Source: a virus
IMG/VR virus record: IMGVR_UViG_3300036790_000286
Span: 3,319 to 67,318 of that record
Length of the DNA: 64,000 nucleotides
Strand: one strand, 5' to 3'
Part shown: one piece after another, positions 26,135-46,934 of the stretch
Numbering within the stretch: the stretch's first letter is position 1
Layout of the letters: each line of letters starts with the position of its first letter
Translations under genes and position numbers: made by a program
The notes under the pieces: generated by a model
What the model was told of the DNA's origin: nothing
Seen by the model: only the letters and a program-made list of their open reading frames with translations
Database searches by the model: none

Positions 26135-26138
26135 CGCG

Positions 26139-28889: not shown

Positions 28890-28892
28890 AGA

Positions 28893-30692
28893 ATGGCAAA
28901 CGTCCTCACTCTCGCGCAGCAGAACGCACTGGCCGCCGCCGCCGGCAACCCGCAACTGCTCGAACTGCTGGAATCTCTCGTCAACACGGTGGGCGCCACG
29001 CAACAGGCGACCAACACCACCGGCAAGAACGTCCCGCCGCAGGCCCAGGCCGTGGTCAGCTACCTGAAGGGCAACTATATTGTCCAGATCACCAACCCCG
29101 GAGCCAGTTCCCCTCTCAGCGCGATCCAGTCTGCGCAGGCAACCCAGAACGCCAACCAGGCCACGACCCTCCAGCCAGTCACGGCGATCCTTCACCAGAT
29201 CCGCTACGCCACCTCTCCCTCCTTCGGGGTGAATGACAACGTGCAGGTGCTGGGCGGCACAACCGGTTCGACCCAGACCTACTGGACCCTGACCAACCTA
29301 GGGAGCGGCAACTTCTATTTCCAGATTCGGTCCAGCTACGACGGGATCAACTTCAACCAATGGAGCAACGCCAACGGCGGTCAGTCGATCACGAGTTTCC
29401 CGGAGCAGGTCACAACCGAGCAGCAGACCAACTCCGATTGGGCGGTCTTCACGCTGCCGGGGGACCAGCTGGTTGCGGTCGGTGAGGGATATGTCCCGGA
29501 CCAGGGGACCTTCACGCTGCCAGAAAATCTCTACAGCTCGGCCATGATCGCAATCGCAGGCCCCAACGGATACCAGGACGTGGGACGCCACGTTGCCGAT
29601 ATCGCGAATTCTGACGTAACTATTCAGGTTCCACCGGATACCTCGGGGACGCTTGGCATTCCCGACTACCCCATCCTCGTGGCGCTGAAGTACGGAGATC
29701 AGAGTTTCCCGCAGATCACCTGGCCGGGGAACGCCAACATCTTCGCCATGGCCTACGATCCGGCGGGCAGCAACGTCACGCAATACCCGAGCGCGGATGG
29801 ACTCTCGTTTTGGGCAGTGTTTACGCTTCCCGGCGGCGCGCAACTGGCTTTCGGCCAGGGAATCACCCCCAACGCCGGCACCATAGAAATCCCGGCGGCA
29901 CTGAACTGGATCACGTTCGCAAAGATGCTGTCGGTGTGCTCCCCCCGAGGGAATGAGTCGAACAACAGCGCGCACGGGGTTTACGAATGCCAGCTCGCCG
30001 CGTCGGGCAGCGACATCATTGCGCAATGTCAATATAGCGACGGGACGAATATGTGGCCCGGGCACGCGAACTGGTTTGCGATCGCCACGAACCTGCCTCT
30101 CCAAACGCTGACAGACGGCAGCAAATGGCTGGTGGTGAACCTTATCGGCGGGAACCAGATCGCCTTCGGCGCCGGCCAGACTCCCAACGCAGGACAGTTC
30201 GAGTTGCCGAGTGGATTCAACAGCTCCCAATCCGTCGGCATCGCCTGTCCTGGAGGGTTCACCGACACCGGGAACGACATGCACGGCGTCGCGCAGTGTT
30301 TTATTGATGAGGGCGCGGTGGTCGGGCTCACCTACTCAGATGGGAGCGGAAACGTCTGGAGTGGGCCAGCAAACTGGATGGTCTTTGCCTGGACCCTCGC
30401 GGGTCAGACGCTTACACCCCCAACGCCCCCCGGGGTCATTGTCTATCTGGTGCCGAGCGGTGTTGCTCTGCCGACGGGCGGGGAGCAGCAGTTCACCGCC
30501 GTGGTCCAGAACACCTCAAACCATGCGGTGACGTGGGCAATTGACGGAATCGCGGGAGGCAATTCGAGCGTGGGGGTCATTGATGGGACAGGACTCTACA
30601 CCGCTCCGACGTCTCCGGGGAACCACACGATCACCGCTACCAGCGTGGCAGATCCAACCGCGATTGGAAGCGGCGGGATCCACGTCAGTTAG
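28893..30692 (+). CDS. Tail fibre-like protein with three tandem repeats and C-terminal Ig-like domain
   Basis: Three W-x-V-x-x-L-x-G...G-x-G-x-x-P repeats; QQFTAVV...VTWAIDG...GLYTAP...TITATS Big-like domain. Confidence 0.65.
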   Translation: MANVLTLAQQNALAAAAGNPQLLELLESLVNTVGATQQATNTTGKNVPPQAQAVVSYLKGNYIVQITNPGASSPLSAIQSAQATQNANQATTLQPVTAILHQIRYATSPSFGVNDNVQVLGGTTGSTQTYWTLTNLGSGNFYFQIRSSYDGINFNQWSNANGGQSITSFPEQVTTEQQTNSDWAVFTLPGDQLVAVGEGYVPDQGTFTLPENLYSSAMIAIAGPNGYQDVGRHVADIANSDVTIQVPPDTSGTLGIPDYPILVALKYGDQSFPQITWPGNANIFAMAYDPAGSNVTQYPSADGLSFWAVFTLPGGAQLAFGQGITPNAGTIEIPAALNWITFAKMLSVCSPRGNESNNSAHGVYECQLAASGSDIIAQCQYSDGTNMWPGHANWFAIATNLPLQTLTDGSKWLVVNLIGGNQIAFGAGQTPNAGQFELPSGFNSSQSVGIACPGGFTDTGNDMHGVAQCFIDEGAVVGLTYSDGSGNVWSGPANWMVFAWTLAGQTLTPPTPPGVIVYLVPSGVALPTGGEQQFTAVVQNTSNHAVTWAIDGIAGGNSSVGVIDGTGLYTAPTSPGNHTITATSVADPTAIGSGGIHVS

Positions 30693-30707
30693 GGCGGAAT
30701 AAAGATT

Positions 30708-31163
30708 ATGCCCGAGGAGCCTAAAAGCGATTCCGAGTCGTGGCGCACCTGGCGGCGAACCTCCCATGGTCTGACGTGGCGGGTAGCGCTGCCAGAGGAC
30801 ATGCCGGCAATCTGCCGGGTGTGGAAGGCGAAGGCGCGAATCATCGGAACCAAGGGACGGATGCCGGATCCATTCTCCTTTCCGGTTGTCATCACCCTGG
30901 TGGCGGAAGACCGCCGCGGCCGCGTGGTTGACGGCGTGTTTCTCGAGGCGGTAATCGACGTCACGAAGATGGGGGCTAACCCAGAGGGGTTTGCCTCGCT
31001 GGTGACGGTGGAGCGGGAACTTGCCGGATTCCTGAAATCACGGAAGTTTCGCCGGATAACGGCACAGATGCCGGAGCGGCTCGCGGTTCGGATGCAGGCG
31101 GGGCTGGTGCGCTCGGGTTTCCAGCAGCAGCAGCAACTGACCCTTTGGGACCGGTGGCTCTGA
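30708..31163 (+). CDS. GNAT-like protein between tail and ejection genes
   Basis: WRVALPEDMPAI...LVRSGFQ pattern; same position as small acetyltransferase-like genes in podoviruses. Confidence 0.5.
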   Translation: MPEEPKSDSESWRTWRRTSHGLTWRVALPEDMPAICRVWKAKARIIGTKGRMPDPFSFPVVITLVAEDRRGRVVDGVFLEAVIDVTKMGANPEGFASLVTVERELAGFLKSRKFRRITAQMPERLAVRMQAGLVRSGFQQQQQLTLWDRWL

Positions 31164-31170
31164 CCGCCTT

Positions 31171-31183
31171 ATGGTAATCTCTG
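31171..31183 (+). promoter_or_regulatory. Late promoter-like motif (7/8)
   Basis: Exact 13-mer, 6 nt before ATG 31190; no SD. Confidence 0.8.
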
Positions 31184-31189
31184 CGCGCC

Positions 31190-31756
31190 ATGGCGACAGG
31201 TGCATCGGATACCGATAAAGACCAGCTGAATATGTACAACGGCGTCGAATCCGGCGCCCTCGGGAATTACAACTCCGATATCGGTAGCTATAACTCGAAC
31301 ATCAATTCCACCCTCGCCGCAGGGAATCCCTACGCTTCCCAGCCGTACCTCGAAAACCAAAATATTGCCACCTCCGGGGCGATGAACGCCGCGAACACCC
31401 GGGAGGGGCAGCAGTTGCGTGACACCACCCGCCGGGCCGGCACGAATACCGCTGCCATCGCTGGCACGATTGCCGATTCGGCACGCACCGGCCAGCGCGA
31501 CCTCACCCAGTACAACGCGACCCAGGCGAACGAAAACGAAGACAAGTGGCTCAACGAGCAGCAGGGCCTGTTCCGCGATCAGCTGGCTGGGGCAAATAGC
31601 GAGGCGGGGGTTTACGGCACTGCAGTCGGCGGAGCAAACAACGCGACCTCCAACTACACGAGCGCCGAGAACGCACAGGACGAGATGTGGGGGCAGATCA
31701 TCTCCGCCGGTGAAGCAGGGGCTGGCGCCGGAGCTGGGGCTGCGTTCCATGGGTAG
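31190..31756 (+). CDS. Internal virion/ejection protein 1
   Basis: A/N/Q/G-rich with a GA-rich C-terminus; first of three genes of increasing size. Confidence 0.6.
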   Translation: MATGASDTDKDQLNMYNGVESGALGNYNSDIGSYNSNINSTLAAGNPYASQPYLENQNIATSGAMNAANTREGQQLRDTTRRAGTNTAAIAGTIADSARTGQRDLTQYNATQANENEDKWLNEQQGLFRDQLAGANSEAGVYGTAVGGANNATSNYTSAENAQDEMWGQIISAGEAGAGAGAGAAFHG

Positions 31757-31763
31757 AGGGTAG

Positions 31764-33344
31764 ATGCCATACGATCCCGAGGATGATGACGAGCAACCGG
31801 ACGGCGCAACCAGCGCATTCGTCTATGGCGGTGGGGGCCAGGACGGACAGCAGCAGGGCCGCGGCATGTCGGGTTACGACCCCAGCAATCCCAATAAGGG
31901 GCTGTCCCCTTCTGACCCGCTCTACATCCCGGCAGTAGCAAATCCGAATGGCGCGCGTCCGGCTCCGAGTGCGGCGCCGAATACAACGCCGCCGCTTCCA
32001 GTGGTGACCAGCGCGCCATTGTCATCCTCGAACGGCAACGACGACGACGCGCTCCATGCCCGGACCTACAATCCAACCCCGTTGCCTCCAATGCCGGCAT
32101 CCCGATACGCCGACGAGCAGCGGCTGGAGACGCAACTGGCGACACCGCCCCCGAACCGCGCCGACTACAAGCCGAGCATCGGCCGGCGAATCGGCGGGTC
32201 CATTGCGGCCGCGCTGGTGGGCATGGGGACCCACAATGCGGAGCAGGGCCTTCAGGTTGGAGAAAGCGCGATCGACGCGCCGTGGGATCGGGCCCAGGAG
32301 GCGTACCGGCAGAAACAGGCCCAGACTCAGCAGCAGCTCAACGCAGTGCGCGAGGGCGAAGACCTCGAGGGTCGTGAATGGGAGCGCGGACTTCAGCAGC
32401 ACAACGCCGGAGAATCCGACTACAACACCTCAGAGCGCGCATACCAGGGGCAGGTGATGGCCCGCGACCGCGCCGCGCAGGAGAAGCAGCGGCTACAGGG
32501 CGTCGCTCCCGGAACCGAGCAGCCTGATGATCCTCAGAACAAAATGGGCGGTTGGCACGCTACGACCGTGGGAGGGCAGGCGATCAAATTGAACGGACCG
32601 CCGGATTCCTGGCTGAAGACTCCTGAGGGGAAAGCTGCCAGCCAGGCCGCATCCGGCGACGCGCTGATTCGGAACCTGAAGGCGAACGGCACTCAGCTCA
32701 CGCCCGAGGATGAGAAATACATCCGGGTGAACGGAAAGCTCCGCGAACCGAGCCCGACCACGACGATTCACAATGAGCCGGCGGGAAAGGCGGAGTGGGA
32801 TGCCTATGTGAAATCCCTCGGCCATGACCCGACGACGCAGGAAGTCATCAACTTCAAGCGCAACGCCCCCGGAGGCGGAAGCACCGCGAACAAGAACCTG
32901 CTCGATCGCATCGAGAGCCAGAAGAACACTGCGATCAGCAAGGCGCGCCAGCAATACGGCCAGGGCAAGGACCCCAGCTACACGCTGGACGATTACCTCG
33001 ATGACTGGCAGGCCGCGCAGGACAACTATGAAGATCGACTCGGTACGACGACGGGGCAGAATATCCCCCATACCGAAGTCCGGGATCACGTCGACAGCAA
33101 AGGCGTTTGGAAGACGGACGGCAAGGGTGGAGCAGCCCCAGCGCCGCAACCCTCGGCTGCAGCGCCCGCGCCCCGCGCCTCCGGGCCTCCCGCTGGATCA
33201 GTCGTCAGTACCCCATCCGGCAAGCAGGTAAAGATCGGAGACCCTGTCATTGTCGGCGGCCAGCGGTACACCGTGACGGGCTACAACCCGCGCAGTGGAA
33301 AGCCGATCATCCAGCCAGCGCAGCAGCCTTCCGGAGCACAGTAA
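31764..33344 (+). CDS. Internal virion/ejection protein 2
   Basis: P/Q-rich, KPSIGRRIGGSIAAALVG segment, coiled coil. Confidence 0.6.
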   Translation: MPYDPEDDDEQPDGATSAFVYGGGGQDGQQQGRGMSGYDPSNPNKGLSPSDPLYIPAVANPNGARPAPSAAPNTTPPLPVVTSAPLSSSNGNDDDALHARTYNPTPLPPMPASRYADEQRLETQLATPPPNRADYKPSIGRRIGGSIAAALVGMGTHNAEQGLQVGESAIDAPWDRAQEAYRQKQAQTQQQLNAVREGEDLEGREWERGLQQHNAGESDYNTSERAYQGQVMARDRAAQEKQRLQGVAPGTEQPDDPQNKMGGWHATTVGGQAIKLNGPPDSWLKTPEGKAASQAASGDALIRNLKANGTQLTPEDEKYIRVNGKLREPSPTTTIHNEPAGKAEWDAYVKSLGHDPTTQEVINFKRNAPGGGSTANKNLLDRIESQKNTAISKARQQYGQGKDPSYTLDDYLDDWQAAQDNYEDRLGTTTGQNIPHTEVRDHVDSKGVWKTDGKGGAAPAPQPSAAAPAPRASGPPAGSVVSTPSGKQVKIGDPVIVGGQRYTVTGYNPRSGKPIIQPAQQPSGAQ

Positions 33345-33346
33345 AA

Positions 33347-36300
33347 ATGTCCACGCAAGCCGTCACCCTCGACCCGGGGGACGTTGAGGTACAGGGTGCG
33401 CAGAGCTCGGGCCAGCAACCAGTTTCCCTCGGCGCCGACGACGTAGAAATCGACAATTCAGCAGCCGAAGCCCACACCGCTGCGCAAACGCGCTCGGATC
33501 AGGCCATGCGAACTCTTGGTCAGGGAATGCTGGCCAATGAGACGGCCGCTTACCAGCCGCCGACGCTTCCGGCCGCCCCGAACCTGGGACGGCCGCCAGC
33601 GCGCCAGCCTTCTGTCGCGCAAACCGCGCTGAATGACACCACGCCGCCGAGCAGCCGATTCGTTACCCCGCAGCAGCCAGCCCCAACCACCTACCAGGAG
33701 GCGACTACCCAGGCCTCGACGCACAACGCCCCGGTTCTCTCTCCCGGGGAGGTTGAGATTATCGGAGGCCCGCGGAGCGCGGCCCAGATCGCCGGACAGA
33801 CCGACGTCCAGGAAGAACCCCTCGGCGCGGCCATCGCCGGGCCCGCACCCGGAACCCGCCCGATGAATCCTCAGGAGTCCGCGACCTACGAGAATAGTCC
33901 GCCTACGGGATTTGGAGCTGGACCGCAGCAGGCGGCACACGAGATATGGGAGGGTACCGGAGATATCGCGCGCGGCGCGGGATACGGCGATGACCTCCAA
34001 ATCGGTCCGCGTGATCCCTCAATGATGGCCCGAGGCGCAACCGAGACGATGCGTGGTGCCATGTACATGGGCACCCCGATGTTCGCTGAAGCTGCCGCCT
34101 CGGCTCCGGTCAAAGCCGGCCTGTCTTACCTGGCTGGCGTGGTGGGCGGAAAGGCAGCAGGGGCAGCGGCGAAGGCGGCCGGTCTCACTCCCGACGAGCA
34201 GGAATTCTGGAACACGGCTGGATTCTTCATCCCCAACGCGCTGACCGCACTGGCCGGCGTTCGGGGAGTGAGCGTTCAGGGACCAGACGGAACCGCAGGC
34301 AAAGGCTTTACGGCGTTCGGTGGCCGAGTGGGCGGAGGCGTCGCGACCTCTCCCGAAGCCGTCGGTGCCGGCGTGCGGGTCGGGCCATTCTCCGCTTCGG
34401 TGGTCAAGCCCCGCGACGCTGGCGTGCAGTTCTCCACGCAAACCCCGACCGCGTTGCCGGATCCCGCCGAGGTATTGCGCCAGCAGCAGAACGACGCATC
34501 GATGAGAGCCGCCCTCGCCGCGGACGCTCTGGACCAGGCGTCTTCGAACGTGATCAACGGGAAGCCTCCAGTCCCGCCCCAACCGAAACCGCCGATGCCG
34601 GCTGGGATGGATCAGGCCGTTCTCCACGCTGATACCGTGCAGCGAGTGGCTGGCGCCATCTCCATGGCCCCGCCGCAGATGCGTCCGCAGCTGACCATGG
34701 AGGCACACCAGAATCTCGCAAAGTGGATTGCCGAGAAGGGCACGGTCATGGGACCGGACGGCAGGATCGCCACGGCGAAAACCCCGGAGCAGGCCAGCGC
34801 TATCGCGGCGAAATGGATCAATGACGAGGTCGCGCGGCAGGACACGGCGCGAAATGAGGCGGCGAAAGCGCAGAAGGAAGCTTCCGCAAAAGCCGCCTCA
34901 AATCAGGAAGGAAAAAATGAAGTGACCCCGCCGCCGACGCTCCAGCAGCGGGCACAGACGGTGATCGACGCGAACGAAGCTCAAACCCCCGTGCAGGTCG
35001 CGAAGACGCTTTTGCGGCAGGTTGGGATTCCGTATTCCCAGGGGCTTGAGATGGTGAAGCAGGCCCGGGCCGGAAAAGCCCCCTCGATCGAGACGGCCGG
35101 AGAACCGGTGGCGCCGGAAGCCAAGGCGGAGATTGACGGCAAGGTTGACGACCTGAAGGCGGGCAACGTGAAAGCGGTCCTGCTACCGGAGGGATCTTCT
35201 TACATCCCGACGCTACCGGAGGGAATCAAGCGGGTCGACGTGCGGCAGGGGCCGGGCGCTGGAACGTATCTATATGATCCGCAGGCGATCAGGGCGGCCA
35301 CGATCAAAGCCGCCGCGAAGGCTGGTACCCACGAGGACCTGCTCGCGCCGAATGAGAATCCGGTTAAACAAAACGAGCCAGAATCTTTAACAGAGCCGCC
35401 CGCTGTTAAACAAGAAGTTGCGTCTTCTTTGGCGCACGACGGCGATCCCCTTACTAGAGAAATAGAGGACAAGAATAACCTCCTTGCTTTTCAGCCGATA
35501 CACCCCGACGATGTCCCTCCCGGGGCTAAACCAAACGAAGACGGAGAATTCGTTCTCGAAGTCATGGAGGAACCGACCGCCGGCAAGCTAGGAAAGATCA
35601 TCGTTGGTCAAGTCAAGGAAGGCGCGCAACGGGGCAAATTCGTTCTCGGGAACCCCGTAAGGAAAGCGAAAACTACGGTTGGCGCTTCTGTTAAGCCACC
35701 TGCTCCGGAGCGCCGCCAGGACACCGGCCAGCGCCAGCGCGTGGCGGAGATGTCGCCCGAGGACATGCGCCGCACCCTGCTCACCAGCGACAAGACCGGC
35801 CTGCCCAACCGTCGTGCCTTCGATGAAGCGGAGCACGGGCGGTCCGCCCCGGCGGTCGCCATGAGTGACGCCGACGGGCTGAAGGCCCTCAACGACAAAT
35901 TCGGATATGCCGCCGGCGACGCCCTGCTCAAAGCCAAAGCTGAAGCCCTCCAGGCCGCAGGGCTCGAGGCTTACCACGACAAAGGCGACGAATTTCTCTA
36001 CCGCGGCGCGTCTGCCAATGAGATAAAGGGAAAGCTGGAACGGGCGCGTGAGATCCTGCGCAACCGGACCATTGAGGTAGAAACCACCGACGGAGAGACC
36101 CTTCGGTTCAAAGGAGCAGATTTCAGCTATGGCACAGGCGCAAACCTCGGAGAATCCGAAACCGCCCTCAAGTCCCACAAGTCCCAGCGCGAAGCCAGCG
36201 GAGAGCGGGCCCGTGGGGAGCTTCGAGGAATTACTGAAGTTGGACCCGAAAAAGGTGAAGTCGGTGAAGGTGCTGCCGCCGGGAGCCTAGCCGCCCGAGG

Positions 36301-39300
36301 CCCGGCGGCCACCATGGAAGCCGGCGCGGAGGCTCACCCGGCGCTTGCCCAGCTTCCCCGGGAACAGCAGCGCGCCGCCGCCGAACGGGACGTGGAGGCG
36401 CAGAAGGATCAGATGGCCGCGCAGCTCCGCCACCTCGGGCAGGCGGGCGCAGCTGAGTACGCAAGGGCAAACCCTGATCTGAAGTCGCTGGTCGACGACA
36501 TCCTTTCCAGGCCGGAAGCATCCAAGGAGGTCAGCCATGTTGGATCAGCAGACAATCGCGGAGTTTCAGGAGCGGGCACGGAAGCTGGATCCCGCATCGC
36601 AGAAGCAGTTGGAGCGCATCCTGAAGGAGGGGGAGACAAACGGGAACCTGCACCCGGTGAGTCACCACTTCAGCCCCGAAGCGCTGAACCGGCAAAATAC
36701 AAATACGGCAACACCCAGGCCGCCATCCCAAAGGGCAGCGACGCCGACCGCGCCCTCGCAGTAGCCCGCGCGCGCATCGACCCCAAAGACCTCATTTCCA
36801 CCGAGTACGGCGGCAATAGCGAAGGCCTCGAGACCGAACCCCACATCACCCTCCGCTACGGCCTGAAGGACGAGGAGACCGCTGGCATCCGCGCGTTCCT
36901 CGAAAAGCAGGCCCCTTTCGAAGCCACCCTCGGAAAGACGACATCCTTCCCGCCCAGCAAGTCCAGCGACGGCGGAGCACCGATCATCGCTCCCGTCGAA
37001 GCCGCCGACCTCCGCCGAATCGAAGCGGAACTGGATAAGCACGGCAATTTCATCGATCGCACATTCCCCGAATACAAGCCCCACGCGACCCTCGGCTATG
37101 TGAAGCCGGAGACGGCCAGCAAGTATGTCGGGATGACCGAGACAGAAGGTAAGACCTTTCCGGTTAAGGCGATCGAGATATCAATGCGCGATGGAAGTAA
37201 AGAGGTGGTGCCGCTTAAAGGCGGATCATCCGCGCTCAATAAGACATACGAGGCTGAGGTCGCCAAGTTCGCCGGCGATCCAAAGGCGCGCATGGAGCGC
37301 GTCGAAGCCGAGAATCGCCGACACGCGGAACAGCTGCTTGCCGAGAAGTTCCCAGGTCAGCGCATCGGAAGCGCCGGCCGTGTCGAGCCCACAAGCTCCG
37401 GTGCCACCGCACCAGAGAAAACGATGGATAGGAAAGGAGGTCGCGGAGAATCTCCAGAGCAGACACCGGGCGCTGCCATTGCCAAGGGCGCCCGGGTGTC
37501 CTTCACCGATAGGACGGGGAAAGAGCGAACCGGGGTTGTCGCCCACACCGACGGCCGCATCGCACGGATCAAGGATGACACCGACCGAAAGAGCTATTCG
37601 GTGGCCGCCGCGAAAGTGAAATCCCTTGCTGCTGCCGGCGAACAGGCGCAGAATGAAGAAACCAATGCCAGCGGAATCGGAAAACCCGCAGGTCTCGCTG
37701 AAGCCGGAGGAGGACGCCCGGCTCCCGTCGCTGAAAGCTCGGATCGAGAGCGACTGGGAGAAGCATCGACCGGCGTACTTCCGGGAGTTGAAGGCGAAGG
37801 AAACGCTCCAGACGGAAATCAACCGGACCGCTCTGATGTGCGTGGAGACCTTGCACCAGTTTCAGAACAAGGGGCTGAACCCGGACCAGGCGCGGGAAGC
37901 GATACAGGAATTGATCGTGCCCCAGCCGGGCCGGTAATCAGGAAGGCCACTGCCGCCCTCGCAAAACCCAAAGCTCTCAACCGGGAATGGTTTTCCCATG
38001 CCGATGCGTGGAAGCCTCCCACGGGCACGGTCGGGCGCCTCGAAGCGAACCTCAACGCCATCCGCATCCTGCGCGACGTGGAGAAGTCCCCGCGCAAGCT
38101 CACCGACGCAGAGAAGGAAGCGCTCTCCAACTATGTCGGATGGGGCGCGCTCCAGCACGCCTTTATGCCCTACGGCGCGCCCCATGATGAGATTGGCCGC
38201 TGGCGCGCAGCGAACGCAGAGCTTCAGAAGTTGCTTACCCCCGATGAGCTAGCCCGCGCGCAGGAGTCGACGAAGAACGCCCACTACACCTCTCCTGAGC
38301 TGGTTCGGTTCATGTGGGACACGATGGCGCGGTTCGGATTCAAAGCCGGCAACGTCCTCGAGCCCGCCGCCGGTACCGGGAACTTTCTGGGGATGATGCC
38401 GAAGGGGCTGCGCGCGAAGGTCAACGCGATCGCGAACGAAATGGATGCGGTGAGCTTCGGTATCACCAAGCTCCTGTACCCTGGCGCCACCCTCTTTAAT
38501 AAAGACTTTGCCGACCTTATCCTCCCGGACAACGACGTCGACGTAGCGATCGGCAACCCTCCGTTCGGCGGGTATAAGTTGTATGACCCCACTTACAAAA
38601 AGCTGAATGCGCTGGTCCACGACTTCTTCTTTGTGAAGTCCCTCGACAAAGTGCGGCCGGGGGGCGTGCTCGCGTTCATCACGTCGACGGGAACTCTGGA
38701 CAAGATGGATCCCGATATCCGCAACATCCTCGCATCGAAAGCGGATTTCCTCGGAGCCATCCGGCTACCCTCCGGCGCCTTCAAGGCGAATGCCGGCACG
38801 GATGTCACGACCGACCTAATTTTTCTCCAGAAGCGGGCACCGGGCCAGACCGCGAAGCACGCCGCTGAGTGGACCAACTCTGTACCGCAGAGCCTTCCGA
38901 CGAAGGAGGGCAACGCCGAGAACCTCAACGTCAACGAGTATTTCCAGAAGCACCCGGAGATGATGCTGGGCAAGCCCACAGCCTCGACCAAGATGTACGG
39001 CGGCATGGGATTCCTGCTCGAACCCCACGAAGGAAGGAGCATCCCCGATCTACTGAAGGAGGCACAGGGGAAGCTCCCGCGCGGGATCATCGCAGAGGCG
39101 GGCCAGCAGGCCACCGGTAACAACCTCGCATCGACTGCGGCGGAGTTTGCGCCCGATGCGCTCCACGAAGGACAGTACACCGTCGACGCCAAGGGCACAC
39201 TGAAGCAGCGGGTCAACGGCAAACTCGTCAACCCCGAAGCGGTGCTCGACAAAGCTGGCAAACCGGTCTTCAGCAAGATCCAGCGGTTCAAGGCGCTGGT

Positions 39301-42300
39301 CGACGTGCGGGATTCCATGAACCGGCTTTTGTCGACCATGGTGACGGCGCCCGACGATGAGATTGGCAATTCGCTGGTGGCAGGCCTGAGGGAAAGCCTT
39401 CAGAAGGACTACGACGCCTTTGTTCGAAAGTACGGCTACCTCAACAGCTCCGCCAACGGGGCATTCCGGGACGATCCGCATTATCCGCGGCTTCTGGCGC
39501 TGGAGACGTGGGACAAGGCCGCCCGCCAGGGAACGCCGGCCGATATCTTCCGCCGCCGCACCATCTTCCCCCGTGAAGAGCTTAGAGCGCTTCCCGAAGA
39601 TCCCGCAGCGGCCCTTCAGCTGGTGCTTGCCGAGCGAGGTTTCCCCGACGTCCAGATGATGGGCCGGCTCCGCAATGAACCGGTTGCCAACGTGGTCAAG
39701 AAGCTGGCCGATCGCGGGCTAATCTATCGGAACCCGGCGAGCGGCAATTACGAGACGCGCGAAACCTACCTCTCGGGGTACGTGCGCGACAAACTGAAAG
39801 ATGCGAAGCGCGCGGTCACGCAGGGGATGAAGGATTACGCGCCCAACGTTGAAGCGCTCGAAAAAGTTATCCCGGCCGATATCGAGATTGGAGAAGACCC
39901 AAAGACCTCCATAGCCGTCCGCCTTGGATCGACGTGGATCCCGACCGATGCGATCGAGGAGTTTATCCGCGACACATTCAAGTCGCCCGGCACGGTCAAA
40001 TACAACATCGGCAACTGGCAGGTCAGGAACATCCGGGACACCGCCGAGGCGCGAGGCCTTTACAGCACGCCCCGGGCCGGATCCAGCGATCTTCTCGAAG
40101 ACACGCTGAACCTGCGCCAGACCACCATCTACGACTACCATTCCGATGGTTCGCGGACCCTCAACAGCGACGCCACCACCGCCGCGCAGGCCGCTCAACA
40201 GAAGATTCGCGAGGCGTTCCAGCGGTGGGCTGTCGCTTCCCCGTGGAAGCCGGAGCTTCAGCGCCTCTATAACGATGCCTACAACAATCTGGCGCAGGTG
40301 GAATACGACGGTTCGCACCTCACCTTCCCGGGGATGAACTCCTCCATCCGCCTCACTGCGCACCAGGTGAATGCCGTTTGGCGGATCCTCCAGGACGGGC
40401 GGGCGCTCCTGGCGCACGTCGTTGGCGCCGGTAAGACCTTCGAGATGGTGGCCGCCGCAATGGAGGGGCGGCGCGTCGGCACGTTCAAAAAGCCGATGAT
40501 CACCGTACCCAACCACATCGTGGAGCAGTTCCGCCAGGAATTCCTGCACCTCTACCCCGGGGCGAATCTGCTGGTGCCGTCCGAGACCGACTTCGATGCA
40601 AAGAACCGCCAGCGGATCATGTCACGCATCGCGACCGGAAACTTCGATGCGGTGATCCTTCCTCACTCACAGTTCAACCTGATGGATATCTCTCCCGAGC
40701 GCCAGCGGGTCACCATCCAGAAGCAGAAGGCGGAGCTGCGCGAGACAATCCAGGCGGTTGCGGAGCAGGAGGGAAAAAAGAGCCGCACGGTTAAGCAGCT
40801 GGAAAAGGCGATGGCCGCGCTGGACGCGACGCTCAAGAAACTCGCTGACCTAAAAGCCGACAAGGCCATCAACTTCGACGACACGGGCATCGACCAGCTA
40901 TTCGTGGACGAAGCCCACATGTACAAGAACCTGAGTTTCTACACGAAGATGACGCGCATTGCCGGGCTGCAACAGGCGAAGGCGAAGAGTGCGCTCCGCC
41001 TGAAGATGAAGACGGAATACCTGCAGGACCGCAATGGCGGCCGCGGGGTGGTCTTCGCTACCGGCACCCCGGTCCAGAACACCATGGCAGAGCTCTACAC
41101 CATGTTTAAGTACGTCGCGCCCGATGTCCTTGAAAAGGCCGGTATCCGCTTCTTCGACGATTGGGCCGCTAACTTCGGCAGCGTAATTACGGCGATGGAG
41201 TTAGCCGCCGACGGTCGCAGTTACAAGGCGCGTTCGAAGTTCGCACAGTTCCAGAACGTGCCGGAGCTGATGAATATGTTCCGCTCCTTCGCGGACATCA
41301 AGACCGCCGAGGACCTGAACCTTCCCACGCCGGAGCTTGAGACCGGCAAACCGATCGTGGTTCCGGTGCCGGCGTCGCCGCGTCTCGAGGCTTTCGTCTC
41401 CCACCTGATGGAGCGGGCCGAGAGGGTAAAGAGTGGGAGCGTGGACCCGCGCGTTGACAACATGTTGAAGATCACGACGGACGGGCGCAAAGCCGCAACC
41501 GACATGCGGCTGATCGACCCCACCCTCCCCGACGATACGGACTCGAAGATCAATAAAGCCGTCGATACGATGTTCGAGGTATGGAAGGACGGCAAGGAGG
41601 AACTCTCCGCCGGCCCCACTACGCAGATGGGGTTTCTGGATCTCTACCGCTCGATCGAGGGCGGGAAAACCGAGGACGGGACGAAGATCCCGGAGAAGGA
41701 GCTGATCAACCTCTACCGCGACATCAAGAAAAAGCTGATGGAGCGTGGCGTCCCGGCAGAGCAGATTGCCATCATCGGGGAGCACGATACCAGGGTGAAG
41801 CGGCAGGCGCTTTTCTCCGCCATGAATGCGGGCAAAGTCCGCATCCTTCTGGGATCCACCTTCAAGATGGGCGCCGGCACGAATGCCCAGCGGTTGCTGA
41901 AAGCTCTCCACCACATCGACCTGACGTGGCGACCCGGTGACCTCGAGCAGCGGAACGGCCGGGCGGTGCGCCAGGGGAATCTGAACCCCTCTGTGCGGCT
42001 TTACAACTACCTGACCGAGCGCAGCTTCGACGCTTACATGGCGCAGACCCTTCAGGGCAAAGCCGAATTTATCTCTCAGGTGATGAGCGGCCGGAACAAG
42101 CAGCGGGTGATGGCCGATGCGGCGAGCGAAATGGTGTTGTCGCTGGAGGAGATGAAGATTGCGGCCTCGGGCAATCCCGACGTGAAGATCCAGTACGACC
42201 TCCAGATGCAGGCGGCACAGTTGCGGGCGCTGGAGCGCAACTTCTTCAGCCAGCGCCGGATGAACCAGCAGGAGGCGAGTATGGCCTCCATGCGCGCCGA

Positions 42301-45300
42301 CAGGTTCGAGGCAGATGTAACCGCGCTGTCAACTGCAACTGAGAAGATCAAAGCCGCCGAGGCGACAGGCGCCGAAGACGGAAAGGGTATCAAGGTTGAG
42401 GTCGACGGGAAGACCTTCACCGATCGCAAGGCGCTTTTCGATCACCTCGAAGCCATGGACATTCCGCCGGTCAACTTCCACATGACGTGGAACGGCATCG
42501 GAGTCGCCGTCGAAGTGAAACCGGCAAACAAGGAATCGCAGGCCCAGGGAATCTCCGGGCTCAACTACCAGCCGGATTACATTACAGGGCGAAATTTTGC
42601 CGCCCCGAGCCGGGACATGACATCGCTGGCCCGATCGCTCGAATCCCGTCTCCGGCAAATCCCCACCGACCTTGAAGAGGCGAAGGTGGAGTTGCCCCGG
42701 CTCCGCGCGAAGGCCCAGCGGCTGGACGAAATTGCACAGTCGAAGGACTTCCCGGAGAAAGCGCAGATGGAGAAGGTAGAGAAGGAGTTGGCCGAGGTGG
42801 AACGCCGGCTCGGGATTCGCTCCGACGTTGAGAACGCGATGGCGCAGGCGGTCACCGCCGAGGTTAGCGACGACCCCGAGGAAGACCTGCTCTCAGACAA
42901 TGATGGCGAGGAGGACCCGGAGGCGGAGGAGCAGCAGGAGGATGCGGACAAAGCCGACGAAGGAATCGCGGAACGGGACGAGACCCCACGGCCCGGCGTG
43001 GTGTTGCGTTCTTCCCTGCTCGGTCTGGACGTGCTGGCGGAGTTTGCGGCGAAGCAGGGGAAAGTTCTGTGGGACGCAGATATCGCCCCCAACCTCTCCA
43101 CCTTCGGCGAGGGGGCCAGGAGCGCCGGCAAAGCAATCGTCAACGTGCTCTATCCGCGGCTGGGAGCCAACGATGACGCGCAGGACATTCTGGCGCGGGC
43201 GCGAGGCAAACTCGAATCGCACCTGTTCCACCTCGAGACGCTGGATGGCGGCCTTGAGAAATTCTTCGAAGCCATGCCGCGCGATGGGCAACTGGCGTTT
43301 ATCGACCGCTACAAGCTCGGAGTGGGGCAACCCGACGCGCGCCTCCAGCAGATCGAGGACATCATGCGCCGCATCGACGATGCCTCCCTGCGGGAAGCCC
43401 AGCGCTATAAGCCCACGCTCCAGGCGAAGGAAGACCACTTCCGGGTCATCTGGAAGGTGGTCCCGTTCGGGGGTGGCGCTCAGGGCGGGAAGACGGCGCA
43501 GTTCGCTAAGACGAAACGCCCGTGGCAGGGAGACAAAGGATTCATGCGGCGTGCGACCCTCGATACGATCAGCGAGGGCATCAACGCTGGCGGGGTTCCT
43601 GTCACCACCAATCCATGGAAGCTCTTTACGCTGGCGCAATCCAGCATGATGAAGTTCATCTCGGCACAGCAGGCCTGGGCGGCAGCCAAGACAGTCGGGC
43701 TGCGGAAATATGTCGAGCGTGGACAGCAGGTGCCGGAGGGATGGGTCAAGATCAACGACCGCATCGCGGACGTGTATTTCCCGGAAAAGGCACTCTCCGT
43801 CGACGTCGACCAGCTGCCCACGCGAACGCTCGGACCGCAAAAGAAAGAGTGGGTAGCCAAGGAAGACCTTGAAACCCATCGCGTTATGGCGAACCCGGGA
43901 AGCTGGTACGGCGAGCCCGGCTTCGGACGGCTGCTCAACAATTACCTGAGCCCCGACCTTCTGCGGCAGTCTGCGCTCGGGAAAGGGTTGCTGTTCGCCA
44001 AGAACCTCAGCACCGCGATCGAGCTGGGAATGTCGCCGTTCCACCTTATCTTTGAAACGCTGGAGGCGATGGGTTCGCAGTTCGGCCTCGGAGTGCAGCG
44101 CGTGTGGAACAACGGCGTGCGCCTTGGAGACGGCCGGGAACTCACACGGGGTATGACGGAGATTGGCTCCGCCGTGGCAGCCCCCTTCCTGATTTCCCAC
44201 GCTGGCGGTAGCCTCAAACGCTTCGCGACAGATCCCGCGCAGTTCTTCTCTACCACGCGCGGCCAGCGCTTCCTGCGGCAATATCCGAACGCCGCGGGCG
44301 CGATGCAGGAGTTGTTCAATGGCGGGCTCACCTGGGGCATCCAGAGGGATTACCGGTTCGATCCGCAGAAGAGCATGATCGAAGCGGCGAAGGAGGGGAA
44401 TTACATCGGGGCAGTTCTCCGCGTGGCGCCGTGGATCAATACCGTCCTGATGAAGCCGCTGTTTGAGGCGTACATCCCGCGGCTGAAGTGGGGCCTGGCG
44501 CTACAGCAGTATTCTCAGCAGCTCGTCGAAAATCAGGAGGCGCTCGGCAACGGTGACATGACCCGCACCGAGATTGCGCGCAAGGTAGCGGACACGGTAG
44601 AGAACCGGTTCGGCGAGATGAACTTCAACAATATCTACTGGAACAACACATTCAAGAGCGTGCTCCAGTTGCTGTTCCGTTCGGTGACGTGGAAGCTCGG
44701 AAACTGGCGTGGCCTTGGCTCGGCAGCGGGTCCTGAGGCGTTCAGCGCCTTCCGGGATCCACTCGAAGCCATGCGCAAGAATGCGCGGTCGAGCAAGGGC
44801 ACCGGGCCGGGAGCGCGCGCCGGCGAATACATTCCCAGGATCGGCATGAACCAGGCGTGGATACTCGGGATGGTGGCCACCACGGCCGTCATCGGAAGCA
44901 TCCTCACCCGCTACTGGACCCGTAAATGGCCGTGGGAAATCGCGAGCGAAGATCGGGAGGAGGGTTATTCCCTGCCGGGCGCGCTGGCACTGGAGGTGGT
45001 ACACCCGCGCACCGGGCGCATCAACCAATTCACCGGGAAACCGGAACGGCTGTCGTTGCCCACCGGGCTCCGGGACTTTGAGCACGCCTTCCGTGACCCC
45101 GGCGGTTACATCAAAGGTTCGCTCTCCGGGACGGTGAGCCACCTATACGACACGCTGGAGAATCAGGACGCTTTCAAAAACTACGTCTACGATCCGAACG
45201 GGAGTCTCTACCGGAAGACCGCCGATATCTTCGCCTACAACATGCCGGAGCCCATCTCGTTTCAGAACTGGCATAACCAGAACGGCGCCGTCGACACCGA

Positions 45301-45640
45301 AAGTCGGGTTCTCCGCGCTGCCGGCGTCGGCAATGCCTCTTCCTCGCTGGACTATTCCCCCGCCGAGACGCGGATGCGGGCGGTGCGCTTCCACCAGCCG
45401 CAGACCCCGGAGCAGATGAAGGCCAGGGAGCAGGAGCACATGCAGCCAACTCGCACACAGATCCGCCGTGCGATCAGGGACGGCAAGCTCGATTACGCGC
45501 AGAAGCTGTTCCGCGGTTTGAGTTACGCCGAGGCTCGGGACATCTACGACAATTACGCCACGCCGGCCGAGCGGGCCGAGCTCGCAGGGATGCTCCGCGA
45601 GAAGCGCAATCGCACCCTCCAGCGCGAAGGGCGGCAATAA
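33347..45640 (+). CDS. Giant polyvalent ejection protein (4,097 aa): GGDEF-like + 2H phosphoesterase + N6-MTase + SF2 helicase (DarB-like)
   Basis: TGLPNRRAF/DADGLKALND/GDALL/KGDEF (about 35770-36180); PHITLRYG and YKPHATLGY (36842, 37082); LEPAAGTGNF and NPPF (38555); AHVVGAGKT, DEAH, TGTP, EQRNGRAVRQGN. ATG 33347 follows the previous stop. Confidence 0.9.
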   Translation: MSTQAVTLDPGDVEVQGAQSSGQQPVSLGADDVEIDNSAAEAHTAAQTRSDQAMRTLGQGMLANETAAYQPPTLPAAPNLGRPPARQPSVAQTALNDTTPPSSRFVTPQQPAPTTYQEATTQASTHNAPVLSPGEVEIIGGPRSAAQIAGQTDVQEEPLGAAIAGPAPGTRPMNPQESATYENSPPTGFGAGPQQAAHEIWEGTGDIARGAGYGDDLQIGPRDPSMMARGATETMRGAMYMGTPMFAEAAASAPVKAGLSYLAGVVGGKAAGAAAKAAGLTPDEQEFWNTAGFFIPNALTALAGVRGVSVQGPDGTAGKGFTAFGGRVGGGVATSPEAVGAGVRVGPFSASVVKPRDAGVQFSTQTPTALPDPAEVLRQQQNDASMRAALAADALDQASSNVINGKPPVPPQPKPPMPAGMDQAVLHADTVQRVAGAISMAPPQMRPQLTMEAHQNLAKWIAEKGTVMGPDGRIATAKTPEQASAIAAKWINDEVARQDTARNEAAKAQKEASAKAASNQEGKNEVTPPPTLQQRAQTVIDANEAQTPVQVAKTLLRQVGIPYSQGLEMVKQARAGKAPSIETAGEPVAPEAKAEIDGKVDDLKAGNVKAVLLPEGSSYIPTLPEGIKRVDVRQGPGAGTYLYDPQAIRAATIKAAAKAGTHEDLLAPNENPVKQNEPESLTEPPAVKQEVASSLAHDGDPLTREIEDKNNLLAFQPIHPDDVPPGAKPNEDGEFVLEVMEEPTAGKLGKIIVGQVKEGAQRGKFVLGNPVRKAKTTVGASVKPPAPERRQDTGQRQRVAEMSPEDMRRTLLTSDKTGLPNRRAFDEAEHGRSAPAVAMSDADGLKALNDKFGYAAGDALLKAKAEALQAAGLEAYHDKGDEFLYRGASANEIKGKLERAREILRNRTIEVETTDGETLRFKGADFSYGTGANLGESETALKSHKSQREASGERARGELRGITEVGPEKGEVGEGAAAGSLAARGPAATMEAGAEAHPALAQLPREQQRAAAERDVEAQKDQMAAQLRHLGQAGAAEYARANPDLKSLVDDILSRPEASKEVSHVGSADNRGVSGAGTEAGSRIAEAVGAHPEGGGDKREPAPGESPLQPRSAEPAKYKYGNTQAAIPKGSDADRALAVARARIDPKDLISTEYGGNSEGLETEPHITLRYGLKDEETAGIRAFLEKQAPFEATLGKTTSFPPSKSSDGGAPIIAPVEAADLRRIEAELDKHGNFIDRTFPEYKPHATLGYVKPETASKYVGMTETEGKTFPVKAIEISMRDGSKEVVPLKGGSSALNKTYEAEVAKFAGDPKARMERVEAENRRHAEQLLAEKFPGQRIGSAGRVEPTSSGATAPEKTMDRKGGRGESPEQTPGAAIAKGARVSFTDRTGKERTGVVAHTDGRIARIKDDTDRKSYSVAAAKVKSLAAAGEQAQNEETNASGIGKPAGLAEAGGGRPAPVAESSDRERLGEASTGVLPGVEGEGNAPDGNQPDRSDVRGDLAPVSEQGAEPGPGAGSDTGIDRAPAGPVIRKATAALAKPKALNREWFSHADAWKPPTGTVGRLEANLNAIRILRDVEKSPRKLTDAEKEALSNYVGWGALQHAFMPYGAPHDEIGRWRAANAELQKLLTPDELARAQESTKNAHYTSPELVRFMWDTMARFGFKAGNVLEPAAGTGNFLGMMPKGLRAKVNAIANEMDAVSFGITKLLYPGATLFNKDFADLILPDNDVDVAIGNPPFGGYKLYDPTYKKLNALVHDFFFVKSLDKVRPGGVLAFITSTGTLDKMDPDIRNILASKADFLGAIRLPSGAFKANAGTDVTTDLIFLQKRAPGQTAKHAAEWTNSVPQSLPTKEGNAENLNVNEYFQKHPEMMLGKPTASTKMYGGMGFLLEPHEGRSIPDLLKEAQGKLPRGIIAEAGQQATGNNLASTAAEFAPDALHEGQYTVDAKGTLKQRVNGKLVNPEAVLDKAGKPVFSKIQRFKALVDVRDSMNRLLSTMVTAPDDEIGNSLVAGLRESLQKDYDAFVRKYGYLNSSANGAFRDDPHYPRLLALETWDKAARQGTPADIFRRRTIFPREELRALPEDPAAALQLVLAERGFPDVQMMGRLRNEPVANVVKKLADRGLIYRNPASGNYETRETYLSGYVRDKLKDAKRAVTQGMKDYAPNVEALEKVIPADIEIGEDPKTSIAVRLGSTWIPTDAIEEFIRDTFKSPGTVKYNIGNWQVRNIRDTAEARGLYSTPRAGSSDLLEDTLNLRQTTIYDYHSDGSRTLNSDATTAAQAAQQKIREAFQRWAVASPWKPELQRLYNDAYNNLAQVEYDGSHLTFPGMNSSIRLTAHQVNAVWRILQDGRALLAHVVGAGKTFEMVAAAMEGRRVGTFKKPMITVPNHIVEQFRQEFLHLYPGANLLVPSETDFDAKNRQRIMSRIATGNFDAVILPHSQFNLMDISPERQRVTIQKQKAELRETIQAVAEQEGKKSRTVKQLEKAMAALDATLKKLADLKADKAINFDDTGIDQLFVDEAHMYKNLSFYTKMTRIAGLQQAKAKSALRLKMKTEYLQDRNGGRGVVFATGTPVQNTMAELYTMFKYVAPDVLEKAGIRFFDDWAANFGSVITAMELAADGRSYKARSKFAQFQNVPELMNMFRSFADIKTAEDLNLPTPELETGKPIVVPVPASPRLEAFVSHLMERAERVKSGSVDPRVDNMLKITTDGRKAATDMRLIDPTLPDDTDSKINKAVDTMFEVWKDGKEELSAGPTTQMGFLDLYRSIEGGKTEDGTKIPEKELINLYRDIKKKLMERGVPAEQIAIIGEHDTRVKRQALFSAMNAGKVRILLGSTFKMGAGTNAQRLLKALHHIDLTWRPGDLEQRNGRAVRQGNLNPSVRLYNYLTERSFDAYMAQTLQGKAEFISQVMSGRNKQRVMADAASEMVLSLEEMKIAASGNPDVKIQYDLQMQAAQLRALERNFFSQRRMNQQEASMASMRADRFEADVTALSTATEKIKAAEATGAEDGKGIKVEVDGKTFTDRKALFDHLEAMDIPPVNFHMTWNGIGVAVEVKPANKESQAQGISGLNYQPDYITGRNFAAPSRDMTSLARSLESRLRQIPTDLEEAKVELPRLRAKAQRLDEIAQSKDFPEKAQMEKVEKELAEVERRLGIRSDVENAMAQAVTAEVSDDPEEDLLSDNDGEEDPEAEEQQEDADKADEGIAERDETPRPGVVLRSSLLGLDVLAEFAAKQGKVLWDADIAPNLSTFGEGARSAGKAIVNVLYPRLGANDDAQDILARARGKLESHLFHLETLDGGLEKFFEAMPRDGQLAFIDRYKLGVGQPDARLQQIEDIMRRIDDASLREAQRYKPTLQAKEDHFRVIWKVVPFGGGAQGGKTAQFAKTKRPWQGDKGFMRRATLDTISEGINAGGVPVTTNPWKLFTLAQSSMMKFISAQQAWAAAKTVGLRKYVERGQQVPEGWVKINDRIADVYFPEKALSVDVDQLPTRTLGPQKKEWVAKEDLETHRVMANPGSWYGEPGFGRLLNNYLSPDLLRQSALGKGLLFAKNLSTAIELGMSPFHLIFETLEAMGSQFGLGVQRVWNNGVRLGDGRELTRGMTEIGSAVAAPFLISHAGGSLKRFATDPAQFFSTTRGQRFLRQYPNAAGAMQELFNGGLTWGIQRDYRFDPQKSMIEAAKEGNYIGAVLRVAPWINTVLMKPLFEAYIPRLKWGLALQQYSQQLVENQEALGNGDMTRTEIARKVADTVENRFGEMNFNNIYWNNTFKSVLQLLFRSVTWKLGNWRGLGSAAGPEAFSAFRDPLEAMRKNARSSKGTGPGARAGEYIPRIGMNQAWILGMVATTAVIGSILTRYWTRKWPWEIASEDREEGYSLPGALALEVVHPRTGRINQFTGKPERLSLPTGLRDFEHAFRDPGGYIKGSLSGTVSHLYDTLENQDAFKNYVYDPNGSLYRKTADIFAYNMPEPISFQNWHNQNGAVDTESRVLRAAGVGNASSSLDYSPAETRMRAVRFHQPQTPEQMKAREQEHMQPTRTQIRRAIRDGKLDYAQKLFRGLSYAEARDIYDNYATPAERAELAGMLREKRNRTLQREGRQ
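36129..36290 (+). CDS. Nested +1-frame microprotein (53 aa) at the end of the GGDEF-like domain
   Basis: AAGGAG 12 nt upstream; ...GSFEELLKLDPKKVKSVKVLPPGA; G/C-ending codons shift to this frame in its 3' half. Confidence 0.4.
   Translation: MAQAQTSENPKPPSSPTSPSAKPAESGPVGSFEELLKLDPKKVKSVKVLPPGA
36537..36764 (+). CDS. Nested +1-frame protein (75 aa) before the 2H domain
   Basis: Perfect AAGGAGGT SD 5 nt before ATG; amphipathic MLDQQTIAEFQERARKLDPASQKQLERILKE; codon bias favours this frame. Confidence 0.6.
   Translation: MLDQQTIAEFQERARKLDPASQKQLERILKEGETNGNLHPVSHHFSPEALNRQNTNTATPRPPSQRAATPTAPSQ
37653..37937 (+). CDS. Nested +1-frame TnpV/DUF1896-like helical protein before the MTase domain
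   Basis: WEKHRPAYFRELK...L...GLNPDQAREAIQE pattern; GC3-rich codons; ATG 37653 or 37665. Confidence 0.65.
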   Translation: MKKPMPAESENPQVSLKPEEDARLPSLKARIESDWEKHRPAYFRELKAKETLQTEINRTALMCVETLHQFQNKGLNPDQAREAIQELIVPQPGR

Positions 45641-45660
45641 AGGTAATCTGTTTCGCGCAG
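45641..45660 (+). promoter_or_regulatory. Late promoter-like motif, variant (8/8)
   Basis: AGGTAATCTGTTTCGCGCAG fills the whole 20-nt gap before ATG 45661. Confidence 0.6.
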
Positions 45661-46933: not shown

Positions 46934-46934
46934 A

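Follow-up and report, generated by a model that had tools for sequence, protein, structure and literature searches.

A giant DarB-like protein with GGDEF-like and 2H phosphoesterase domains in a putative tailed phage of Acidobacteriota

We analyzed a 64,000-nucleotide stretch of viral DNA (hereafter 'the window', which covers nearly all of the single 67,318-bp virus record IMGVR_UViG_3300036790_000286) and found that one gene on its + strand joins several unrelated enzymatic domains in a single frame of 4,097 amino acids (aa): a GGDEF-fold nucleotide-cyclase-like domain, a 2H phosphoesterase domain, an N6-adenine methylase and an SNF2 helicase. We read the product as a polyvalent early effector of a tailed phage of Acidobacteriota, which would be delivered by the virion and whose modules would act separately, and we put this reading at roughly 60%. 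The frame is open from a TTG at 33107 to 45640, and the likely start codon is the ATG at 33347, 3 bases past the stop of the upstream open reading frame (ORF; 31764..33344), which places the whole gene at 33347..45640. The amino acid numbering used throughout starts at TTG 33107 (protein P0001) and not at ATG 33347.

The DarB-like core (37256..42943, +; aa 1384-3279) was identified by a PHROG match, by Pfam and by its motifs. It matched phrog_10089, 'DarB-like antirestriction', with an E-value of 0 over aa 1384-3279 (profile positions 1343-3251 of 4647). The N6-methylase lies N-terminal to the SNF2/SF2 helicase and the motifs of both are intact, namely methylase motif I EPAAGTGNF (aa 1752, nt 38360-38386) and GNPPFG (aa 1816, nt 38552-38569), followed by the helicase Walker A motif GAGKTF (aa 2440, nt 40424-40441), the DEAH motif (aa 2601-2604, nt 40904-40930) and motif VI (aa 2948, nt 41948-41980). 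Two Pfam models passed their cut-offs, SNF2-rel with 28.6 bits (cut-off 24.9) and ResIII with 23.0 bits (22.5), and two remained under them, the Eco57I methylase with 19.5 bits (25.3) and Helicase_C with 16.8 bits (23.5). A megablast search of positions 33000-46000 against phage records returned no match. In the comparison of the core with phage records there were 144 matches; P1 darB was among them, as were the DarB-like giants found in phages of Burkholderia, Ralstonia and Klebsiella. P1 DarB has the same N6-methylase and SNF2 core, with 32.5% identity in three pieces, and the giant of Burkholderia phage DC1 showed 33.6% identity over 85% of the window core. The window protein differs from these DarB giants in its N-terminal 1,300 aa, which hold the GGDEF and 2H domains, and in its C-terminal module. 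A first-pass annotation of this DNA, made from the letters alone, had already placed the GGDEF-like, 2H, N6-methyltransferase and SF2 helicase domains in one chain and had called the protein polyvalent and DarB-like; the single + frame 33107..45640 confirms the former, and the phrog_10089 match together with the 144 phage records supports the latter.

The GGDEF-like domain (35708..36283, +; aa 868-1059) was recognized by Pfam, by profile comparison and in an AlphaFold2 model. The Pfam family PF00990 scored 27.6 bits in the whole protein (aa 896-990) and 34.0 bits in the isolated segment aa 866-1060, the cut-off being 23.8. The domain carries the metal- and base-binding motif SDADGLKALND (aa 920-930, nt 35864-35896) and the hairpin motif HDKGDEF (aa 957-963, nt 35975-35995), and in a profile alignment D921/D923, K926, N929 and G937-D938 coincided with the D-x-D, K, N and G-D of WspR; we take the metal, base-contact and lysine residues to be equivalent to those of PleD in the numbering of that protein. 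Conservation was assessed in 121 sequences, that is, the window copy and 120 relatives. These relatives came from a search with the profile of alignment A1 (12 family members, with the copies at loci L005 and L014 omitted), which covered longer proteins of 444-2000 aa only and gave 140 proteins at E ≤ 1e-5, 120 of which were listed and scanned. In this set N901, D923, K926, N929, G933, G937, K944 and G960-D961-E962-F963 were each invariant (121/121), D921, R966, K1025 and R1028 were each present in 120 of the 121 sequences, and the residue two before the first-glycine position was H in 114. An RxxD I-site upstream of the motif was found neither in the window copy nor in any other of the 121 members. 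Given that the active-site residues are invariant in 121/121, catalysis, or at least the binding of a nucleoside triphosphate (NTP), is likely, and the pattern fits an enzyme that has been selected for catalysis and would be free of product inhibition. Each of the two omitted copies (L005:1348-2031 and L014:9944-10528) is a GGDEF-matching stretch with one in-frame stop, for which a gene boundary, damage to the copy or an error in sequencing may be responsible.

The fold points in the same direction. The A1 profile matched 33 PDB sequences at E ≤ 0.01, and the named ones were all GGDEF or response-regulator proteins, 3 sequences being titled only 'uncharacterized'. The AlphaFold2 model had a mean pLDDT (predicted local distance difference test) of 86.4, its best Foldseek match had an E-value of 5.3e-9 with about 25% identity to solved cyclases, and among the matches listed to rank 50 every one was a GGDEF structure. 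A palm of the Cas10/mCpol type or of the Thg1 type was rejected for this module because all profile and fold matches were diguanylate cyclases. The fold and the D-x-D, K, N, G-D and GDEF elements of PleD, WspR and the T. maritima diguanylate cyclase are also present in the window domain; in contrast to these canonical enzymes, the clade of the window has K/Q-GDEF, lacks RxxD and bears the C-terminal signature K..R...GER.RGE. The first-pass description of a GGDEF-like domain that keeps the metal- and base-binding D, N and D, has HDKGDEF and lacks RxxD is thus in agreement with the WspR alignment and with the 121 sequences.

Several observations speak against an active cyclase. The NCBIfam model TIGR00254 scored 23.4 bits, under its cut-off of 37.4. 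The hairpin does not hold both glycines: the window has KGDEF, and in the 121 sequences, all of which keep G-D-E-F, the first glycine of the motif is never present, being replaced by K in 104, Q in 11, S in 3 and other residues in 3. Before the motif, PleD has an arginine and the window protein a histidine. Position 938 (nt 35918-35920), which aligns with the guanine-contacting aspartate of WspR, is D in the window; of the 121 sequences, 70 have D there, 49 have N and one has S, so that product specificity may differ between sub-clades. The inactive GGDEF domain of FimX was among the fold matches, and therefore the fold alone is no proof of activity. Diguanylate cyclases require a dimer, and neither a dimerising domain nor a sensor domain was identified in the polyvalent protein. 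In view of the invariant active-site residues we consider that the domain probably binds or turns over nucleotides; cyclase activity, as judged from sequence and tempered by the altered hairpin, the missing dimerisation domain and the TIGR00254 miss, is probable.

The 2H domain (36668..37231, +; aa 1188-1375) was identified by Pfam, by alignment and in an AlphaFold2 model. The generic 2H model PF13563 (2_5_RNA_ligase2) scored 39.7 bits in the whole protein (aa 1242-1356) and 44.7 bits in the isolated domain (cut-off 27), and LigT_PEase scored 23.3 bits in the isolated domain, its cut-off also being 23.3. The first HxT motif (HITLRYG, nt 36842-36862; HITL begins at aa 1246, giving H1246-x-T) was kept in 14 of 14 family members in alignment A2, and the second (TFPEYKPHATLGY, aa 1319-1331, nt 37061-37099; H1326-x-T) in 13 of 14. 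PF13563 matched all 14 members, the Acb1 model PF23474 matched 13 at E ≤ 0.01 (best 2.4e-7) and LigT_PEase matched nine. The AlphaFold2 model (pLDDT 89.1) gave 57 PDB matches at E ≤ 0.001, and among the matches listed nearly all were 2H enzymes or 2H-fold proteins. The domain is a bona fide 2H enzyme and probably active, as its motifs and predicted fold indicate, and the first-pass call of a 2H domain with two HxT motifs was correct. The same annotation had proposed a structural check for each domain; the models of both matched solved proteins, diguanylate cyclases in one case and 2H enzymes in the other, well beyond chance.

The 2H domain had also been described as Acb1-like, with a resemblance to the T4 protein, and this description holds at the level of the 2H superfamily and does not hold as membership of Acb1. 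T4 Acb1 (Hobbs et al. 2022, PMC9117128) is reported to cleave the cyclic di- and trinucleotides of the cyclic oligonucleotide-based antiphage signaling system (CBASS) 3' of adenosine and to have a C-terminal lid. It has the same 2H fold with two HxT motifs, and the likeness to the window domain is local to the second motif (FPEYKPHATLGYV in the window domain versus FDDYTPHITLSYN in T4 Acb1); T4 Acb1 is a protein of 152 aa, whereas the window domain, of about 185 aa, forms one part of a giant protein. When the A2 family was compared by hhalign with T4 Acb1, the probability was 17.6% with an E-value of 0.0014 for 43 aligned columns that surround the second HxT, and with E. coli ThpR/LigT it was 0.2% with an E-value of 0.27. 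By sequence, Acb1 is the nearest specific family, and membership fails by the curated test: PF23474 scored 23.1 bits against a cut-off of 27 in the isolated domain, with profile positions 72-114 of 144 only, and 13.5 bits in the scan of the whole protein. Other results likewise count against an Acb1-type assignment. None of 10 short relatives (182-308 aa) reached the Acb1 cut-off and seven were sub-threshold (16.9-25.5 bits), with PF13563 passed by nine; the A2 profile found no solved 2H protein in the PDB, with six chance-level matches at E ≤ 10; and the best fold match was the Usb1 RNA exonuclease (E 5.8e-7), with Acb1 (FBB1 structure) at rank 35 (E 1.2e-4, template modelling (TM) score by target 0.69).

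These results bear on the possibility that the 2H domain acts on RNA, either by healing the 2',3'-cyclic phosphate ends left by host anticodon ribonucleases or other ribonucleases, or by Usb1-like trimming. A role in RNA is one of two options given for 2H domains by Iyer et al. in the main text of PMC5512222. The best folds, which besides Usb1 include archaeal and bacterial 2'-5' RNA-ligase-like proteins and LigT, agree with it (plant CPDase and, at rank 8, the penguinpox cyclic GMP-AMP phosphodiesterase were also among the matches), as do the passing of PF13563 and LigT_PEase but not of Acb1, and a match to phrog_755, which is labelled 'RNA ligase'. However, Pfam recognized no RNA ligase or kinase partner in the protein, the family profile lies closer to T4 Acb1 than it does to ThpR of E. 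coli, with 13 of 14 members matching the Acb1 model, and the domain stands beside nucleotide-signal modules, that is, GGDEF here and a sub-threshold RelA/SpoT-like stretch at locus L011. We regard an RNA substrate as possible, though somewhat doubtful.

We also examined how the GGDEF and 2H modules are distributed among relatives of the protein. A scan of viral contigs found 27 related loci, and local tblastn placed GGDEF in 14 of them, 2H in 18 and both in five; at L001, L009, L011 and L023 the order is reversed, 2H running straight into GGDEF, and the DarB core is common to L015 only (43.6% identity). Both modules occurred in 13 of the 120 listed GGDEF relatives, seven as 2H-GGDEF and six as GGDEF-2H, and in every case they were direct neighbours, 0-93 aa apart. 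When the full library was searched with the A2 profile, 4,841 representative clusters were obtained at E ≤ 0.001 (2,549 at ≤ 1e-10 and 279 at ≤ 1e-30). Among the best 150 of these 4,841, a GGDEF module was present in 14 (five of them overlapping with the set of 13), in all 14 adjacent to the 2H module with a largest gap of 217 aa, and the DarB core was present in eight; P0146 and P0217 have the same order as the window, GGDEF, 2H and DarB. In the window itself the two domains are separated by a linker of about 128-129 aa (36284..36667, +), which is much shorter or absent in most relatives; the first-pass spacing of 'about 200 aa' was roughly right, the motifs being 283 aa apart. At L011 a protein of 3,682 aa (L011:7676-18721) has a RelA/SpoT-like stretch at aa 651-751 directly before 2H-GGDEF, with a sub-threshold score of 24.8 against 27 bits, which makes three nucleotide-centred modules in a row.

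The pairing that the first-pass annotation had emphasized is therefore real in that the two modules are adjacent whenever both are present, and it is a minority arrangement (13/120; 14 of the best 150; 2/45 in the bacterial loci below). Against the pairing stand the 107 of 120 listed GGDEF relatives without a 2H module, the 136 of the best 150 2H relatives without a GGDEF module, and the bacterial genomes. In a bacterial scan that took one genome per species we found 64 loci, of which 45, all in metagenome-assembled genomes (MAGs) of Acidobacteriota, had at least 49% identity; a 2H module lay within 3 kb in only two of these 45, one of which is identical to the window. GGDEF and 2H are independent, freely shuffled modules that are neighbours whenever they occur together, and their adjacency hints at cooperation without proving it. 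A prediction of the GGDEF-2H complex, made without controls, gave a score of 0.00, which speaks neither for nor against contact.

In GdpP/YybT and Caulobacter PdeA, for example, a degenerate GGDEF domain binds GTP or ATP and regulates the phosphodiesterase to which it is fused. By this precedent, the GGDEF-fold domain might make no signal and instead bind NTPs as a sensor for, or a regulator of, the 2H phosphodiesterase beside it. The constant adjacency in either order (13/13; 14/14), the loss of the first glycine of the motif and the TIGR00254 score under the cut-off all suit such a role, as does the title of the YybT paper, which refers to an ATPase-active GGDEF domain joined to a cyclic dinucleotide phosphodiesterase (cited in PMC7824862). 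However, stand-alone forms of 152 aa exist in Bordetella and Pseudomonas phages. Because most proteins with the GGDEF module have no 2H and stand-alone forms exist, a regulator without a target is unlikely. In addition, the near-full invariance of the metal and catalytic D, D, E and K exceeds what binding alone usually keeps. We therefore consider the sensor role quite unlikely, and return to the reading in which the two modules act separately.

The place of the gene in the genome bears on whether the protein is delivered. The polyvalent gene closes the + strand block, downstream of a candidate capsid protein gene on the same strand (19986-21284), whose predicted product had TM scores of 0.77-0.85 to clusters named 'phage major capsid protein', a lead from a language model and predicted structure; tblastn of this candidate against phage records gave no match. 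Replication genes lie on the opposite strand to the polyvalent gene. According to PMC9144972, the DarB-like gp69 of JC1 (a Bcep22-like podovirus; 4,515 aa) was found by mass spectrometry with 51 unique peptides in virions purified on caesium chloride (CsCl), and its gene closes the morphogenesis module; the window gene likewise closes its + block, as far as the sequence indicates. P1 DarB is described as a virion protein in PMC5512222. It is plausible, by analogy with these proteins, that the window protein is packed in the virion and enters the cell with the DNA. What weakens this picture is that the 10 neighbouring large ORFs (+ strand, 14768-33344 and 46154-48020) matched no PHROG at E ≤ 0.001 and reached the curated cut-off of no Pfam model, with weak Pfam matches at E ≤ 0.1 only, far under the cut-off, and therefore the term 'structural block' rests on one lead from the language model and predicted structure. 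No terminase or portal was recognized anywhere in the window. The phage group appears to be very poorly described.

We also considered the possibility that the protein is not delivered and acts after its synthesis in the infected or lysogenic cell, for example through a rise in cyclic di-GMP (c-di-GMP) that alters the cell surface or biofilm. A surface or biofilm role of this kind has been proposed, on grounds other than enzymology, for the small GGDEF genes that temperate Bordetella phages carry. PMC8471281 reports that lysogens of LK3 form more biofilm. Many of the 45 MAG loci stand on contigs of 0.1-1.8 Mb, which suggests prophages. On the other hand, the gene is the last one in the presumed late, structural block of its strand, the homologous giants JC1 gp69 and P1 DarB are virion proteins according to PMC9144972 and PMC5512222, and a gene of 12.3 kb would be heavy for lysogenic conversion alone. 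Action after synthesis thus seems unlikely, and we prefer delivery with the virion.

On the delivered reading, the protein would be made late together with the structural proteins, and the virion would take it up and discharge it into the cell along with the DNA. The DarB-like methylase-helicase would travel along the incoming DNA, methylate adenines and block restriction, as P1 DarB suggests. The 2H domain would likely hydrolyse a nucleotide phosphodiester, either in immune cyclic oligonucleotides, as Acb1 does, or at 2',3'-cyclic or 2'-5' RNA ends. The GGDEF-fold domain may be an unregulated cyclase that converts NTPs into a cyclic dinucleotide, most likely of the c-di-GMP type; such a product is favoured because the guanine-contacting N and D are kept. 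The product would then perturb the extensive c-di-GMP network of the host or compete with immune signals. The C-terminal module, the constant part of the family, may anchor the protein in the virion.

A soil bacterium of the Acidobacteriota (Terriglobia) is the best explanation for the host, and an uncultured tailed phage is the best explanation for the virus. As a sample of hosts, we took genomes that belong to the same order as one host MAG. Receptors for c-di-GMP of the PilZ type were found in 43 of 61 host-order genomes (G001 had 40 matches, and the unpublished genomes G024 and G032 are counted among the 61), and therefore these hosts use c-di-GMP widely. A CD-NTase (SMODS) over the cut-off was found in 14 of 201 host-order genomes (including the unpublished G093) and in none of five host MAGs with a related module; thus a minority of hosts possess cyclases of the CBASS type that a phosphodiesterase could counteract. 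According to PMC9117128, c-di-GMP is not cleaved by T4 Acb1, and therefore an Acb1-type enzyme and a diguanylate cyclase could coexist without a futile cycle.

A bolder possibility is a cassette that swaps signals, in which the 2H domain would erase immune cyclic oligonucleotides while the I-site-free cyclase keeps the dinucleotide pool high and so counters guard systems that sense loss, either by silencing guards that fire on drained pools or by jamming receptors with a non-cognate dinucleotide. A guard of this kind is Panoptes, which fires when Acb2 sequesters its decoy (PMC12657218). The Panoptes cyclase mCpol was over the cut-off in none of the 201 host-order genomes, and therefore we set the anti-Panoptes reading low and regard the cassette as a long shot. 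The separate action of the modules remains our preferred reading.

Polyvalent proteins of phages and conjugative elements were defined by Iyer, Burroughs, Anand, de Souza and Aravind in 2017 (PMC5512222), whose main text describes the methylase-SF2 helicase dyad typified by DarB and names both GGDEF ('not very widespread') and 2H among the components. The window protein resembles this class in its giant multi-domain size, in the dyad and in having GGDEF and 2H. The example given there is a prophage protein of the firmicute Acetonema longum with GGDEF, SNF2, methylase and other domains, whereas the window protein belongs to a phage of Acidobacteria. The same text put forward the degradation of defence nucleotides as the role of 2H, and interference with the nucleotide responses of the host as that of GGDEF. 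The first-pass annotation had inferred that one ejected chain destroys immune nucleotide signals and makes or sequesters a decoy or c-di-GMP-like signal at entry; since interference with nucleotide signals is already in print, this inference restates a published prediction. Term searches of the main text of PMC5512222 and literature searches brought up neither GGDEF and 2H as direct neighbours, whichever comes first, nor the I-site-free K/Q-GDEF clade, nor the abundance of these modules in phages of Acidobacteria. The adjacency rule is modestly new, and the class, both domains and the idea are known.

Stand-alone small relatives of the GGDEF domain occur in the Vojvodinavirus and Yuavirus siphophages of Bordetella and Pseudomonas. 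The protein of Bordetella phage CN1 (152 aa) was aligned by hhalign with 99.4% probability and 42% identity, and has the N-terminal helix and the C-terminal signature of the window clade. Proteins of the CN1 type differ in that they are encoded by separate small early genes in phages of Proteobacteria, have AGDEF and have a beta-hairpin region 17 residues shorter. The CN1 gene adjoins one annotated as 'antirestriction protein'. In PMC8471281 the GGDEF gene of Vojvodinavirus and Yuavirus is described by annotation only. The 2H module had a single match among the records of phages with cultured hosts, at 262935-263465 of Tunturiibacter phage Tunturi_5, a jumbo phage with a host in the Acidobacteria (38.9% identity); the matching gene is annotated 'MutT/NUDIX hydrolase' and may be a NUDIX-2H fusion or a mislabel.

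The remaining parts of the protein have few recognizable features. The N-terminal region (33347..35707, +; about 790 aa) is of low complexity, rich in Ala and Pro, and without a family match; its part at aa 499-788 is common with giant proteins of L001 and L022 at 36-41% identity. The conserved C-terminal module (43352..45502, +; aa ~3416-4132) was defined by its similarity to giant proteins of related contigs, with 24-26% identity to those of nine related viral contigs that have no DarB core. Only language-model features link this module to LPD38 clusters; Pfam returned nothing beyond weak coiled-coil noise for the N-terminal, linker and C-terminal pieces, and the LPD38 likeness is therefore a language-model lead only. 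The NCBIfam scan of the whole protein gave 13 matches, all far under their cut-offs. A hydropathy scan of the protein found no strong transmembrane segment, and membrane anchors were dropped from consideration for that reason.

Elsewhere in the window, a second DNA methyltransferase of 454 aa is encoded at 49491-50855 (-; phrog_67, E 2e-68). A DnaB-type replicative helicase with DnaB N and C domains is encoded at 51106-53808 (-), and it has an insert with LAGLIDADG/homing-endonuclease matches at aa 522-612, which suggests an intein; the PHROG labels 'terminase' on aa 288-680 of this protein probably stem from that insert. Among the genes at 1654-2958 (+), 59449-61473 (-) and 62279-63457 (-), PHROGs recognized a replication-initiation-like protein, an SbcC-like protein and an exonuclease, and these complete a replication/recombination module.

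Enzymes that are delivered with phage DNA act before the phage expresses its own genes and so decide the first minutes of infection, and the window protein with its many relatives shows that phages of the Acidobacteria, a soil phylum that is dominant yet little studied, possess a large and shuffled repertoire of them. Two well-defined and abundant clades are concerned, the I-site-free GGDEF (at least 140 proteins, plus the stand-alone forms) and the 2H (4,841 clusters at E ≤ 0.001), and both modules are small and soluble-looking with invariant active sites, so that they are cheap to assay. If the 2H domain cleaves immune signals, the Acb1-type strategy would extend to a family of far greater size. 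An active cyclase would, so far as searches of the GGDEF literature show, be the first nucleotide cyclase shown to be delivered by a phage.

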